A stretch of 64,000 nucleotides of DNA from Escherichia phage FL12. Positions 11,711 through 64,000 of the stretch are shown one piece after another (within the stretch, counting starts at the first letter, position 1; each line of letters opens with the position of its first letter). Location: the sequence record PP400786, one strand, 5' to 3'. A program made the position numbers and the translations under genes. The notes under the pieces were generated by a model. That model searched no databases. It had not been told where the DNA came from and saw nothing but the letters and a program-made list of their open reading frames with translations.

Positions 11711-11920
11711 TTAAATTACATGATTATTTATAATAAATTCTCGCGGAACGTTAAAATATCCGATTTTAGTTAATATAACAACATCACCGTTAATAATTAC
11801 CGGAGAATAATCTTCTGGAGCATTAAATTTCCAATGGGCTCTAATATTATATCCATCAGAACCAAATGCTCGAGTAGCCGGTCTCCCGGCTTTTTGCCAC
11901 GCGTAGAAATCAAATTTCAT
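11711..11920 (-). CDS. small hypothetical protein
   Basis: ORF track 69 aa. Confidence 0.45.
   Translation of the reverse strand: MKFDFYAWQKAGRPATRAFGSDGYNIRAHWKFNAPEDYSPVIINGDVVILTKIGYFNVPREFIINNHVI
11725..11732 (-). promoter_or_regulatory. T4 late promoter box TATAAATA upstream of soc
   Basis: exact TATAAATA on the minus strand ~30 nt upstream of soc ATG. Confidence 0.5.
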
Positions 11921-12907: not shown

Positions 12908-13932
12908 ATCTTAGCATATTTAGATAGCCGCATTTTAGCCATCAACCCCTGGGCAATATTATTTTTCATATATTCCATAATTTGTTCAGGGGTTGCACCT
13001 TCCTTTCTAATCATATCATTGACATCTTTTGATTTCCAGGGAGATTTATCCCAAAACATAACCCTTTCTCCTGCATCAACTAATTTAGTCATTCGTTTGA
13101 TAGTGTCAGGGTGACGAGGTTCATTATCTAAAACCCACACTCGTCTATCTTTAAATGGAACAACTTCTAGGTCTAATTGACCACCTGTAATAGCTATACC
13201 ATTTTCAATAAAAAGTGAATCTATAGGTCCTTCTAGAACATATACATCACCATCTTTAACTCGTTCAACTCCATAGATTTTTGTTGCCTCAGGATAAGCT
13301 TTGATGGTGATATATTTTTGAGGAGCATCTTTCTTTAATGCACGTCCTTGAAAAGACTCAGCTTTTCCATTAGCATTATAAATTGGAATAACAAGACGAG
13401 GCTCAGATATTTCCTTTTTATATGTTCCCGGTGCTATACTATTAACTAATTTAGGCCATTCGGTTGTAAACCAAAGATATTTCCATTTATCCTTTGGAAT
13501 ACAACGAGCTTTTACGTATTTTATAATTGGGTGGTCTTCCGCCAGTTTATCTAATCTAACACATGACGGAAGAGATTTAATTATTTTCTTCTCAGGTTGT
13601 TTAGGAAGTTCTTTAGGTTTTTCTACTGGACGACTTTTACCTTTTTCTTTTCTTATTTCAAAGATATACTCACGATATAAATCAGGTTCAAACTCCTTTA
13701 AATATATTCCGATTGGTGCATGATAGTTACAGTTATAACAATGAATATTTCCTTCATTATTATCACCATAATACCATCCACGAGCTTTATTCTGGTCGGT
13801 TTTTGAATCTCCACAAACAGGGCATCTAAACCGCAATTTAAAAGTTGAACTATTATTTACTTGTGTGAATTTAGGTAAATGAGCTAATGCACGGTATGCA
13901 AACTCATTATCAATCCAAGGTATTGATGACAT
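12904..13932 (-). CDS. 61: DNA primase
   Basis: 342 aa as T4 gp61; zinc ribbon CPVCGDSK...CYNC. Confidence 0.9.
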   Translation of the reverse strand: MSSIPWIDNEFAYRALAHLPKFTQVNNSSTFKLRFRCPVCGDSKTDQNKARGWYYGDNNEGNIHCYNCNYHAPIGIYLKEFEPDLYREYIFEIRKEKGKSRPVEKPKELPKQPEKKIIKSLPSCVRLDKLAEDHPIIKYVKARCIPKDKWKYLWFTTEWPKLVNSIAPGTYKKEISEPRLVIPIYNANGKAESFQGRALKKDAPQKYITIKAYPEATKIYGVERVKDGDVYVLEGPIDSLFIENGIAITGGQLDLEVVPFKDRRVWVLDNEPRHPDTIKRMTKLVDAGERVMFWDKSPWKSKDVNDMIRKEGATPEQIMEYMKNNIAQGLMAKMRLSKYAKI

Positions 13933-13934
13933 TT

Positions 13935-14099
13935 TTACTCTTCTTTTTCTTTAGATTCCTCTTTTTTCTTTTTAGGAATCTGCTCAGGACCTTTATTTAC
14001 TACAGCGCCTGACGTTGTTCCAGTAGAGATATTTTCAGGATTACCACCTGAATCTCCAGCGACCATATCTTCTTTGATAAATTCTTTATATGTTTTCAT
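13935..14099 (-). CDS. small protein with internal-protein-like capsid targeting leader (MKTYKEFIKE)
   Basis: Own translation 54 aa MKTYKEFIKEDMVAGDSGGNPENISTGTTSGAVVNKGPEQIPKKKEESKEKEE; RBS GAGG; not in track. Confidence 0.45.
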   Translation of the reverse strand: MKTYKEFIKEDMVAGDSGGNPENISTGTTSGAVVNKGPEQIPKKKKEESKEKEE

Positions 14100-14100
14100 A

Positions 14101-14456
14101 TTAACCTCTATTCATAAAAGCATTAAAAATTTGGTCATCAATAGATGGCGCAGTAATATTTTCTGCATCATTTAGCAAATCATTAATTTCATCAGATAGC
14201 ATAACACATGTACCTTTATTTCCTGTAATTGTTACTGCACAATTACGAACGTTTTCTTTATCAAATTTTAGGTTAATATTTTCGTAGTGAAAATCCTTTA
14301 ATGCCGAATATATCTTTAAAATGAAATTGTCTTTTACTACAATAAACCCAACCTCACTATTAAAACGTGGTTCATGGAAACTGTAATAAACCTTTTCATC
14401 TATAAAATCGTATGAAATTTTTCCATTTTTAAATATGAAAATTCAGAACTATACAT
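14101..14456 (-). pseudogene. degenerate partial duplicate of the downstream 210-aa gene; no clean start
   Basis: ATG 14454-14456 opens an 18-codon frame; the +2 frame encodes ...VGFIVVKDNFILKIY...SIDDQIFNAFMNRG paralogous to 14458-15090; ~45-bp near-identical junction repeat at 14097-14144 and 14454-14501. Confidence 0.45.
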
Positions 14457-14457
14457 A

Positions 14458-15090
14458 TTAATCTCTATTCATAAAAGCATTAAAAATTTGATCGTCAATA
14501 GAAACTTTTACTTTAGGCTGTTCTTCAAACGGTAATTCATATCCACATATTACAATTTTGTGATCGATACCAAAATACACAGAAGCAATATTATTAATAT
14601 TATTTTCAGTGAAATCTAAATCAACATCAATATCTTTTTGACTAACGCTCAAAGGATAATTAATACGAATAATTCGATTATCTTTAACAAAGATTCCACC
14701 GACATACTCTGTGCTGCGTTTAAAGTTTACACGTTTCCTAAATGAAAAATATTCAGGTTCTTTATGGGCTCGACTCATAGGGCTTAAAGTGTATTCCGAA
14801 TATGAAATATCAAATCCTACACCTTCAATATGAGCCAAAGTGTCATGATTAAACCAATTATAATCGTATGCCAAATCCATTAAATTGTAATATGTGAAAG
14901 GCACCGGATTAACATCATATGTTGTACCTTTAAAATCTGCCCAGGCAACGATTTCGTTATCTTTAACAATTACAAAAATTGTGCCAATAAGATATCCACG
15001 GTTATTTTCATCAGGCGTTATATTATAACATTGTGCATCAGGAAATTTACCGTATTTAAACGGTGGATTTTTGTGCATATAATAAATCAT
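14458..15090 (-). CDS. hypothetical protein with internal repeat (61.2 position in T4)
   Basis: ORF track 210 aa; repeated IFV(I)VKDN modules. Confidence 0.5.
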   Translation of the reverse strand: MIYYMHKNPPFKYGKFPDAQCYNITPDENNRGYLIGTIFVIVKDNEIVAWADFKGTTYDVNPVPFTYYNLMDLAYDYNWFNHDTLAHIEGVGFDISYSEYTLSPMSRAHKEPEYFSFRKRVNFKRSTEYVGGIFVKDNRIIRINYPLSVSQKDIDVDLDFTENNINNIASVYFGIDHKIVICGYELPFEEQPKVKVSIDDQIFNAFMNRD

Positions 15091-18901: not shown

Positions 18902-19567
18902 TTATAGTAGTGTTCTTGTTCCACGAAATACTTCGAGCATTCTTGCATAAGATTTATTTGGAAATCCAGCTTCAATTGCTAATTTTTTAAGCTTAATAGC
19001 ACCGGGTTTTCCAGAGTTTTCCCATATTTCTTTAATCTTTTCAATGTTATCCCACATTATTGGGTCACGTTTATGTGATGGTTTATTTCTATTATAACCA
19101 TATGGATTATTAAGCAAAGCTTCTTTTCGTTTTGCTTTAGTTTCTTCTGACTGCTTTTTGCCTAGCTGGGCTTTCCGGCAAACATCACTAAATCCAAGAT
19201 GTTTTGGTTTTCCTTTTTGAGCTTTTGAAATTTTTTCTTTGGTTTCTGATGAAACTCTATAACCAATTCTTCTACCACCCTCTCCACCAATTTTTAAATT
19301 ATAAGTCATAGGATCATTTACCACATCTATTGTTACTAATTCTCTTTCAGCATCACGGGCTGATTTAAAATCTTTATAAAACCCAAGAATGCTTAAATTA
19401 AAATTTTTCTTACCATACTTTTTCTTGGCTTGTGCTAATAAAGTTCCTGATCCCATATAACCATCATTTAAATCATCGGTTGAATGAGTTCCATAGTAAA
19501 TTTTATTATTAACTAAATTAGTTATAACATAAGTATAATTATATTTCTTTTCTTTATGTCTTTTCAT
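18902..19567 (-). CDS. segA: GIY-YIG homing endonuclease SegA-like
   Basis: start moved to ATG 19565-19567 giving 221 aa; KYNYTYVITNLVNNKIYYGTHS GIY-YIG motif; between uvsX and beta-gt. Confidence 0.7.
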   Translation of the reverse strand: MKRHKEKKYNYTYVITNLVNNKIYYGTHSTDDLNDGYMGSGTLLAQAKKKYGKKNFNLSILGFYKDFKSARDAERELVTIDVVNDPMTYNLKIGGEGGRRIGYRVSSETKEKISKAQKGKPKHLGFSDVCRKAQLGKKQSEETKAKRKEALLNNPYGYNRNKPSHKRDPIMWDNIEKIKEIWENSGKPGAIKLKKLAIEAGFPNKSYARMLEVFRGTRTLL

Positions 19568-51993: not shown

Positions 51994-52035
51994 ATATACC
52001 CCTTTAGTTAGATAAACCTATTTATAACTTTTGCA

Positions 52036-57000: not shown

Positions 57001-57304
57001 TTATTTACCTTTAATTACTTTAGCTGCTTCGATAGCCGCTTGCTGAAGGTCATCCATAGACATACCGAATTTAGAAGCAAAGTTATCAATTTTCTTTTCG
57101 ACAGCATTCAAAGGCTTTGCCTGTTTACCTTCATTAGCGCCAGGAAGAGCGAGAATACGCTCTTTGTCAATATAAAGGCTTACAAGTTTCTTACGGTCTT
57201 TATCGGACAAATCATGAAATGAATGGGCCTTTTTATTTATAGCGGGCTTCTAATTTACCTGCACTCACTCGCGCTTCAGTAATAAATTCTTTATATGTTT
57301 TCAT
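57001..57304 (-). pseudogene. internal-protein-like gene disrupted by a +1 frameshift
   Basis: ATG 57302-57304 encodes MKTYKEFITEARVSAGKLEARYK then TAA; the body (…SDKDRKKLVSLYIDKERILALPGANEGKQ…) continues in the +1 frame to 57001. Confidence 0.5.
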
Positions 57305-57795: not shown

Positions 57796-59036
<1,241 letters not shown>

Positions 59037-62263: not shown

Positions 62264-62830
62264 TTATTTACCTAGTTTAGTTATTATAGCTTCGGCAGCA
62301 GCTTTTAGCTTAGATGCAGTGTTAATACGATTTTTAATTTCAGTATACGCATCGCCAAGAACATCAAGGCTATCAGAATAAACACTTACACTATTGCGTT
62401 CGCTATTTGAAATAGAACCTTTAGTTTTACGATCAAAATCGGTGTACACGTCTTGAAGATCGCGGGCTGCCTTCTTTGCATCATCCAATGCATCAAGAGC
62501 TTTATTCAAAGCATTGACATATTTTTTAGTGTCGAACATATTCTTAGAAATTTTGACAGGTGCACGTTCAGGAGTAGCTAAGGCAGATTTAGGAAGAACC
62601 TGTTTGCCAGATGCCAGTTTCTTAGAAATTTTGAAAAACGCTTTATTGAAATTATTTTCTTGACTCATCGTAAAAGAACTATTATCAATGTTATACATTT
62701 CAATAGCTTTAGCTTTCCACTTAAGAAAATCGCCACGGTCTTTTGGGTCCAAGTGGAAGAATACTTTAGTAAGATCTGCTTCAGATGGTAATTTTGCTGC
62801 TTCGGTTAAAAATTCGGCGTAGGTTTTCAT
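62264..62830 (-). CDS. internal protein, IPIII-like (capsid-targeted, Lys-rich)
   Basis: 188 aa; N-terminal MKTYAEFLTEA; length and composition like T4 IPIII (194 aa). Confidence 0.55.
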   Translation of the reverse strand: MKTYAEFLTEAAKLPSEADLTKVFFHLDPKDRGDFLKWKAKAIEMYNIDNSSFTMSQENNFNKAFFKISKKLASGKQVLPKSALATPERAPVKISKNMFDTKKYVNALNKALDALDDAKKAARDLQDVYTDFDRKTKGSISNSERNSVSVYSDSLDVLGDAYTEIKNRINTASKLKAAAEAIITKLGK

Positions 62831-63336: not shown

Positions 63337-64000
63337 TTAAAATTTCATTTTTCGACCTTTAAACCATCCTTCTGGAATTGGGTCAGTTTTCTTAATACGT
63401 TTAGAAACTTTTTCATCTAATGAATGAATCCACATCATACCAAATTGGGAATTCTTTTCGCCCTGTTGATGTTTATTTCTGGCGTGAGATTCTTTCATTT
63501 TATTAATAGTTTCAGGAGTATGGGTCTTACCCAAGAAAGATTTAGTATTTAAAAATTTCTCTCTATACTTAGGATTATCCCAAAGCTGTTTAAACCTTTC
63601 TGAACCCATTTTACGATATTTTTCTTTAAGGTCTGGGTCGTTCTCAAATCTGGTTTTAAAAGCGGCAGCTCCTTTTAAGGAAGCTTCTTTCTTTTTATCC
63701 AAATATTCTTTAGTGTTTAAATGGTCCCAACCACCTTCACCACCTAATTTCAAATTATAAGCATCAGGGCGCTTTAAAAACTCTTCAGTCACAATATTCT
63801 TTTCTGACTCAAACATAGAGGTTTTATCGTCAAAGAACTCTAATATTTCTTTAGAAAAATTTTCTATACCATACTTATCTTGGGCTCTTTTTAATAATTT
63901 ACCAGAACCCATATATCCATCATCTAAATTTTCGGTAGAATGAGCGCCTATATAGATTTTATTATTAATTTTATTTGTTATTTTATAAATGTAATGGAAC
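63337..64000 (-). CDS. segB: GIY-YIG homing endonuclease SegB-like; N-terminal few codons beyond window end
   Basis: minus-strand frame open to the window edge: ...FHYIYKITNKINNKIYIGAHSTENLDDGYMGSGKLLK...; adjacent to the tRNA region as in T4. Confidence 0.65.
   Translation of the reverse strand, partial: FHYIYKITNKINNKIYIGAHSTENLDDGYMGSGKLLKRAQDKYGIENFSKEILEFFDDKTSMFESEKNIVTEEFLKRPDAYNLKLGGEGGWDHLNTKEYLDKKKEASLKGAAAFKTRFENDPDLKEKYRKMGSERFKQLWDNPKYREKFLNTKSFLGKTHTPETINKMKESHARNKHQQGEKNSQFGMMWIHSLDEKVSKRIKKTDPIPEGWFKGRKMKF

Follow-up and report, generated by a model that had tools for sequence, protein, structure and literature searches.

The locus at 13935-14099 on the minus strand of a 64,000-nucleotide (nt) stretch of Escherichia phage FL12 (sequence record PP400786; the whole stretch is called the window here) raises the question of why a 54-codon open reading frame (ORF) directly upstream of primase gene 61 opens with a leader of the internal-protein (IP) genes, which are located 43-49 kb away. 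The initial annotation, which had put that distance at about 43 kb, regarded the ORF as an orphan and offered two explanations, an extra injected mini-protein in an anti-defence island or a shared leader that serves as a joint at which cassettes are moved by recombination. The ORF proves to be T4 gene 61.1, a genuine conserved protein-coding gene that is already named and has no assigned role. Its product, gp61.1, is tripartite and consists of a leader, a module of roughly 35 residues paralogous to capsid protein gp23, and a Lys-rich tail. As judged from sequence comparison, gp61.1 is paralogous to 45 residues of gp23 without being a capsid protein itself. The reading preferred here, tentatively and at somewhat less than an even chance, is that gp61.1 is a prohead-targeted substrate of the protease gp21 that yields a 44-residue mimic of the N-terminus of gp23*, the mature gp23, rather than a stray cassette.

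The gene and its parts have the following coordinates.

13935-14099, minus strand: gene 61.1, 54 codons and a TAA stop at 13935-13937, from the ORF list, annotation and a phrog match.
14070-14099, minus strand: leader or propeptide MKTYKEFIKE, codons 1-10, of the capsid-targeting sequence (CTS) type, with a predicted gp21 cut after Glu10 (codon 14070-14072).
13980-14069, minus strand: module DMVAGDSGGNPENISTGTTSGAVVNKGPEQ, codons 11-40, homologous to the mature gp23* N-terminus (N-fist 66-91 and the start of the N-arm).
13938-13979, minus strand: tail IPKKKKEESKEKEE, codons 41-54, Lys-rich and then acidic, with a conserved basic cluster and a variable remainder.
14105-14108, minus strand: ribosome-binding site (RBS) GAGG, read from the sequence, five bases before the 61.1 ATG (14097-14099).

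The product given by the ORF list and the sequence is MKTYKEFIKEDMVAGDSGGNPENISTGTTSGAVVNKGPEQIPKKKKEESKEKEE. It is 96% identical to T4 gp61.1 (NP_049649), of which the gene lies at 18966-19130 and begins MKTFKEFIKE, and near-identical phages carry the ORF annotated as a homolog of that protein. The locus is 98.8% identical to Tequatrovirus phages teqdroes, NR1, and Ozark, and the window is likewise from a Tequatrovirus. In profile searches the protein matched phrog_1823, the short form of the family, over residues 1-54 (E 7e-34) and phrog_2086, the long form, over residues 8-53 (E 2.6e-16). Neither form has a family in Pfam or NCBIfam, and in the literature searched gp61.1 appears in two papers, in both solely as an entry in a gene table.

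The ORF, its RBS, and its leader were described correctly in the initial annotation, as was the position directly upstream of gene 61; two bases separate the TAA stop of 61.1 from the ATG (13930-13932) of the 342-codon primase gene. The RBS of 61.1 overlaps the end of the preceding ORF, whose TAA stop is at 14101-14103. The gene order on the minus strand is 41 (helicase), dmd, 61.4, sp, 61.2, a frameshifted extra ORF, 61.1, 61 (primase), and 56, so that 61.1 has the position typical of its family, between helicase gene 41 and primase gene 61 on the same strand. A placement between 61 and 61.2 had been proposed earlier. The first neighbour is right, and 61.2 does not adjoin 61.1, as a 118-codon frameshifted ORF (14101-14456) intervenes. 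The setting in an anti-defence island was confirmed, with dmd, tifA (61.4), and adfA (61.2) as neighbouring anti-toxin genes, and gp61.1 has no sequence similarity to Dmd, TifA, or AdfA, with which it shares location alone.

The main finding lies in the body of the protein. In BLASTP, residues 2-38 of gp61.1 aligned to residues 57-93 of T4 gp23 with 43% identity (E 1e-8). A family profile of 18 sequences compared with all PDB sequences recovered T4 gp23 chains only (E 7.4e-9), with profile positions 3-46 on gp23 58-101. In hhalign, the family and seven gp23 N-termini from different genera were aligned with a probability of 98.2% and E 3.4e-14, residues 2-46 falling on gp23 57-101. The solved mature gp23 chain has 456 residues and begins AEIGGD, so that the maturation cut by gp21 must lie after Glu65 and before Ala66. 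Glu10 of gp61.1 is paired in every alignment with gp23 Glu65, the residue before the cut (P1), and the junction Glu10-Asp11 is aligned with Glu65-Ala66. The N-fist of gp23* comprises residues 66-91 (PMC7136217). Four consecutive pieces of gp23 are copied in gp61.1: the nine residues that end the propeptide, then the cut site, the N-fist, and finally the N-arm as far as its tenth residue.

Nine residues invariant in the 18-sequence family alignment (E10, G15, D16, I24, G27, T29, G31, G37, and P38) are identical in T4 gp23, and these nine are also invariant among the seven gp23 N-termini, except for the equivalent of T29. A14 is invariant in the family as well, yet it is Gly in T4 gp23. The basic pair of the tail was aligned with gp23 R100-R101 in the profile alignments. 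The ratio of nonsynonymous to synonymous differences (pN/pS), computed from eight diverged short-form homologs, is 0.18 for the module, 0.55 for the tail, and 0.29 for the whole gene with saturated synonymous sites; the module is the most conserved region of gp61.1. Purifying selection and wide conservation rule out a spurious or non-coding ORF.

Similarity to gp23 is thus seen over residues 57-101, with the P1 Glu in register and with shared GD, NI(A), G.T.GA, and GP motifs, and gp61.1 differs from gp23 in being this 45-residue stretch only, without the HK97-fold body, propeptide residues 1-56, or the Gol region. The Pfam Gp23 model (PF07068), which covers T4 gp23 88-517, did not match gp61.1. 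Owing to the gp23 homology, the ORF is named 'major capsid domain-containing protein' in some records. The homology went unnoticed in the earlier reading of the ORF, which was made from the sequence alone.

No stable fold was predicted for the short gp61.1 in AlphaFold2 (mean predicted local distance difference test score, pLDDT, 59.5; predicted template modelling score 0.18). In the long form, residues 10-70 of the N-terminal domain are confidently helical, and the pLDDT of the module is below 50. Inside the unexpanded head, gp23* residues 66-105 lack order and probably contact the scaffold, and after expansion they become N-fist and N-arm; changes at A66, A94, and G97 of gp23 alter head length (PMC9546572, PMC7136217, PMC9958956). 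In the expanded shell, the N-terminal region of gp23 contacts four subunits and helps to form the Soc site (PMC9546572, PMC9958956). A module that is disordered when alone fits the gp23 segment, which is ordered only once docked on neighbouring subunits after expansion.

The leader agrees with the CTS at M1, K2, T3, Y4, E6, F7, I8, and E10. It departs from the IP group only at positions 5 and 9, where the IP genes of the window differ from one another as well. Four IP genes with such leaders were found there.

57304 (start), minus strand: leader MKTYKEFITE of the ipII homolog, named by comparison with T4; nine of ten residues identical to the 61.1 leader.
57628 (start), minus strand: internal-protein gene leader MKMYQEFIVE.
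58077 (start), minus strand: internal-protein gene leader of CTS type that fits the loose leader pattern.
62830 (start), minus strand: internal-protein gene leader MKTYAEFLTE.

A six-frame translation of the 64 kb was searched with the loose leader pattern M[KR].[YFW].[ED][FVILM][ILVM].E and compared with 200 shuffles. The five matches in the window are the starts of 61.1 and of the four IP genes, so that the leader identity claimed in the initial annotation holds; none was found in the shuffles, which excludes chance as the source of the match. At the nucleotide level, the first 30 nt of 61.1 and of the ipII-homolog leader are identical at 27 positions, and the 45 nt upstream of the 61.1 ATG are unrelated to those of the IP genes. 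A duplicated promoter or RBS, which had been named as a simple origin of the likeness, is ruled out by this unrelated upstream sequence. Within the leader, pS is 0.62, pN is 0.14, and pN/pS is 0.23, the synonymous sites being nearly saturated. As the amino acids were kept on nearly saturated synonymous sites and the upstream sequences are unrelated, the match is held by selection at the protein level and not by a recent block copy. In mutational work on the ipIII leader, as reviewed, positions 4 and 7 act in targeting and positions 8 and 10 in processing (PMC9026906). The 61.1 leader retains these key residues as Tyr4 (Phe in T4), Phe7, Ile8, and Glu10, which makes targeting of gp61.1 to the head by its leader a fair hypothesis.

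The register with a hydrophobic residue at position 4, Glu at 6, hydrophobic residues at 7 and 8, and Glu at 10 is common to the IP leaders and the gp24 propeptide, and also to gp23 56-65, save for Ser at the equivalent of position 6. The vertex protein gp24 (MAKINELLRE/S) resembles gp61.1 in its 10-residue propeptide, which is removed by gp21 and has hydrophobic positions 4, 7, and 8 and Glu at 6 and 10; it differs in being a full capsid protein, with a mature N-terminus unrelated to the 61.1 module. The single protein in which a CTS-type tag is joined to the capsid sequence that follows it in gp23 is gp61.1, which suggests that the CTS may be a copy of the end of the capsid propeptide.

T4 IPI, IPII, and IPIII are similar to gp61.1 in the 10-residue leader, in its register, in the key residues Y/F4, E6, F7, I/L8, and E10 with the I/L-x-E end, in small size, and in an early transcript. 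Differences were found in the body, which in gp61.1 is conserved across Straboviridae and homologous to gp23 and in the IPs is polymorphic, and in location, as 61.1 is at a fixed site beside the primase gene, without a late promoter, whereas the IPs are in variable loci. The predicted mature product of 44 residues is not basic overall here (pI 5.0), and its first residue (P1') is Asp and not Ala. Compared with internal proteins of the CTS group, gp61.1 thus has the leader, but not a variable mature part, the IP locus, or a late promoter.

The family is widespread, and the ORF is not an orphan. In tblastn, the module was found in 1493 phage records, with hosts including Escherichia, Klebsiella, Aeromonas, Acinetobacter, and Vibrio. 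Short forms of 51-64 residues occur in Tequatrovirus, Dhakavirus, Kanagawavirus, Krischvirus, Biquartavirus, and some Klebsiella phages. Mosigvirus, Pseudotevenvirus, Schizotequatrovirus, Lazarusvirus, and CC31-like phages have long forms of about 123-166 residues; in these an N-terminal helical domain of about 105 residues replaces the 10-residue leader before the module. Long-form homologs (phrog_2086; KVP40, CC31, RB69-like, and Acinetobacter phages) share with gp61.1 the module, the hydrophobic-x-Glu before it, the basic tail, and the site upstream of the primase gene, and differ in the N-terminal domain, of which the fold has no known match. No solved structure was matched by the long form in a search by sequence. 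Short and long forms are interleaved among related genera, RB69-like Mosigvirus having the long form and T4 and JS98 the short one, so that the leader and the N-terminal domain look like interchangeable front ends of a constant back end.

The motif hydrophobic-x-Glu stands directly before the module in the forms examined (IKE/D, LNE/D, LFE/D, MNE/E, and VEE/A) and in nearly all diverse metagenomic forms examined. Glu10 is invariant in the 18-sequence alignment and is present in at least 90% of 34 long forms. A profile search of 1.84 billion representatives gave 50 clusters, all of them short or long forms together with a few with C-terminal extensions, and in a database of that size no full capsid protein scored above the threshold. 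Among diverse metagenomic short forms, most start with MK-x-aromatic-x-acidic-hydrophobic, for example MKTFNEFLKE/AEVSGD and MKIKTFDEFVE/AMVAGDHG. In some members (IMG/VR contig 3300033696_000004 and proteins P0129, P0170, and P0157) a C-terminal domain of about 85-95 residues is added after the basic tail, and in P0170 and P0157 the module is at the extreme N-terminus, with a leader of 7-10 residues. Given the extras at the N-terminus and at the C-terminus of family members, the module is joined to other parts at both ends.

Krischvirus phage kaaroe, of which the 61.1 leader is MIGFKQFVEE, was scanned to see whether the 61.1 leader co-varies with the IP leaders where the former differs. No recognisable IP genes were found in the 150 of 164 kb that were scanned. 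The one further hit in kaaroe, a 78-codon UvsW.1-like ORF (L076 2605-2841, minus strand), starts MISFKRFLVE/AA, similar to the CTS and to kaaroe's own gp61.1 leader.

The comparison of the locus across related genomes, which had been proposed earlier, showed 61.1 between the helicase gene and the primase gene, directly upstream of the latter, in all 56 viral-contig loci, with primase identity down to 38%. This constancy, the two bases between the 61.1 stop and the start of gene 61, and the conserved basic cluster in the Lys-rich tail would suit a small replication-linked protein with a role in the primosome, the likeness to gp23 being an old captured fragment with no capsid role. Such a role is considered quite improbable, as the residues conserved in the family are those invariant in gp23, including the P1 Glu. 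The coupling is also not universal, since other ORFs lie between 61.1 and the primase gene in Krischvirus and Pseudotevenvirus, and the head gene 40 is in the same cluster, so that position is no guide to function.

According to the preferred reading, as a prohead-targeted gp21 substrate, gp61.1 would be made from early or middle transcripts and brought to the scaffolding core of the assembling prohead by its leader, possibly also by its N-fist-like module; the counterpart region of gp23 probably faces the core inside the prohead. There gp21 would cut after Ile8-Lys9-Glu10 and release a 44-residue, 4.6-kDa peptide that starts DMVAGD and resembles the gp23* N-terminus. The signature expected of the cut product is DMVAGDSGGNPENISIGTTSGAVVNK with a free Asp11 N-terminus. 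The N-terminal domain of about 105 residues in other genera would be a removable targeting piece like the 10-residue leader. The freed peptide could take up contacts made by the gp23 N-terminus or compete for them, either on the prohead scaffold or at the N-fist sites of the expanded shell; alternatively, it may stay in the head and enter the next cell. Packaging and cleavage are predicted here from the fit of the leader to the CTS, from the fit to I/L-x-E, after the Glu of which gp21 cuts (PMC12991175), and from the alignment of Glu10 with Glu65. The IP proteins have no conserved sequence past the cut; conservation of the gp61.1 module is therefore not due to recognition by the protease and must serve another purpose.

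Several observations weigh against this reading. The T4 61.1 transcript is classed as early, although the transcripts of T4 ipII, ipIII, and head gene 40 are classed as early too. The late promoter TATAAATA occurs on the minus strand at 11725-11732, 52019-52026, 57234-57241, 58576-58583, and 58589-58596 and nowhere else; the site at 11725 is upstream of the soc homolog, two are upstream of the lysozyme gene e and the IP cluster, and one is inside the ipII coding sequence. No copy serves 61.1 on the minus strand between 14100 and 52000, while the cluster of IP genes and e has two. In the time-resolved proteome of T4 infection gp61.1 was not detected, and with 54 residues and one long stretch free of Lys it is a hard target. 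The mass-spectrometry study of the T4 virion consulted reports IPII, IPIII, and Alt and does not mention gp61.1, and the high-resolution T4 capsid papers examined describe no additional peptide. The P1' residue is mostly Asp or Glu in the homologs, where gp23, ipII, and ipIII have Ala and gp24 has Ser, so that cleavage of gp61.1 may be poor. Nor is it apparent how the fixed site beside the primase gene would relate to head assembly.

Some of these points would be accommodated if gp61.1 were a cytoplasmic pseudo-substrate of gp21, made early to soak up or slow stray gp21 and so to time maturation or blunt sensors triggered by gp21, for example CdnG, an enzyme of the cyclic-oligonucleotide-based antiphage signalling system (CBASS). 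An early transcript with no late promoter is expected then, and the hydrophobic-x-Glu junction is retained with the next residue usually Asp or Glu instead of Ala or Ser. CBASS senses gp21 activity outside proheads, and its enzyme is triggered when gp21 cuts it (PMC12991175). The gene stands beside counter-defence genes, and T4 already has a protease inhibitor, inh. This explanation leaves unaccounted for about 30 conserved gp23-like residues past the cut, where IP substrates share nothing, as well as the CTS-type leader and its swap for a 105-residue domain, and it is regarded as improbable.

The injected mini-protein of the initial annotation would share packaging and cleavage with the preferred reading: the resulting 44-residue peptide would enter the next host with the DNA like IPI* and block a defence. 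The CTS-type leader and the location in an anti-toxin island are in line with this, and known internal proteins are injected blockers of defence (PMC3012670). Internal proteins are highly variable (PMC9026906), whereas the module is strongly conserved from Escherichia phages to Vibrio and Acinetobacter phages; its sequence follows a capsid segment and no host target, and a late promoter is missing. As a candidate function, injection is given a low probability.

Another early role would be that of a capsid-protein decoy, in which a soluble copy of the gp23 segment binds a host capsid sensor without activating it and masks the gp23 made later. Homology to gp23 57-101, early expression, and the counter-defence neighbourhood point in that direction. 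So does a slightly higher identity of gp61.1 to the gp23 of the same phage than to the gp23 of others (153 against 147.2 +/- 2.7; p 0.016 by permutation), a weak signal from lineages that are non-independent. Mimicry of Gol, the region of gp23 sensed by Lit, was rejected: Gol was read as an invariant block from about gp23 residue 94 and is outside gp61.1, which aligns only weakly up to gp23 101 and does not have that block. The decoy is further weakened in that we know of no sensor of gp23 57-101, and it is decidedly unlikely.

A broader view of the copied capsid junction takes gp61.1 as a capsid mimic that may be a regulator or decoy of the protease, possibly shielding from protease-triggered immunity, or a detachable N-fist peptide that would fill or contest the scaffold and lattice contacts of the gp23 N-terminus, with an effect on the maturation or size of the head. 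At the same time gp61.1 would be evolutionary evidence that the CTS has its origin in, or is a copy of, the last ten propeptide residues (F59-x-x-F62-L63-x-E65). Taken whole, this view is rather unlikely.

The second explanation of the initial annotation, the shared leader as a recombination joint that moves cassettes, has in its favour the 27 of 30 identical nt, and leader-mediated shuffling at IP loci was reportedly proposed by Repoila et al. 1994. Codon bias alone accounts for this nucleotide identity, the upstream sequences being unrelated, and the synonymous sites of the leader have diverged between lineages (pS 0.62, as above). The position is the same in all 56 loci, and the body, instead of being swapped, is the most conserved part of the protein. 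The actual joint for insertions here, a 49-nt direct repeat ending at the ATG, is distinct from the leader. A role of the leader as a joint is very improbable, and the suggestion is refuted for the most part. The two copies of the repeat are as follows.

14097-14145, minus strand: copy A, 3' end of the inserted AdfA-like ORF with the RBS and ATG of 61.1.
14454-14502, minus strand: copy B, 3' end of 61.2/adfA with the RBS and ATG of the inserted ORF.

The copies are identical at 46 of 49 positions, and each consists of the last 13 codons (SIDDQIFNAFMNR-) of an AdfA-type gene with the RBS and ATG of the next gene. T4 is without the inserted ORF, and 61.2 adjoins 61.1 there. The repeat that brackets the inserted ORF looks like homology used in the insertion or duplication of the cassette.

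The inserted ORF at 14101-14456 on the minus strand is a 118-amino-acid ORF known as 'HY01_0032', which is intact in close relatives; here the loss of one base from an A-run (GGAAAAAA to GGAAAAA) shifts its frame. The intact HY01_0032 protein is paralogous to the C-terminal half of AdfA/gp61.2, which counteracts DarT (37% identity over 105 amino acids, E 2e-10). The ipII homolog at 57001-57304 on the minus strand is split into ORFs of 23 and 69 codons by an extra C (GCCCGC; GCCGC restores KLEAAINKKAHSFHDL). Together, this extra C and the deletion in the A-run at about 14415 suggest homopolymer sequencing errors and not two pseudogenes. A 188-codon gene at 62264-62830 on the minus strand has the CTS-type leader MKTYAEFLTE/AA, matches phrog_2280, and has a GIY-YIG-like ORF (63337-63912) as its neighbour; it probably encodes a lineage-specific internal protein, the locus being of the ipI type.

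Gene 61.1 itself is known already; new is the testable reading given to it here. Head assembly of T4 is among the best-studied assembly pathways, yet no role has been assigned to this conserved 54-codon gene. Should gp61.1 act as a cytoplasmic decoy of protease or capsid, it would represent a new kind of counter-defence, in which a phage copies part of its own capsid protein. Should it be a gp21 substrate carried into the prohead, a component is missing from the present inventory of the T4 head, and gp61.1 would be a natural minimal case of a CTS joined to a peptide of capsid origin. Judging by the existence of short and long forms, a tag of 10 residues and a domain of 105 residues seem able to replace each other as delivery devices, and such interchangeable front ends are relevant to the CTS-based packaging of foreign proteins in T4 vectors.

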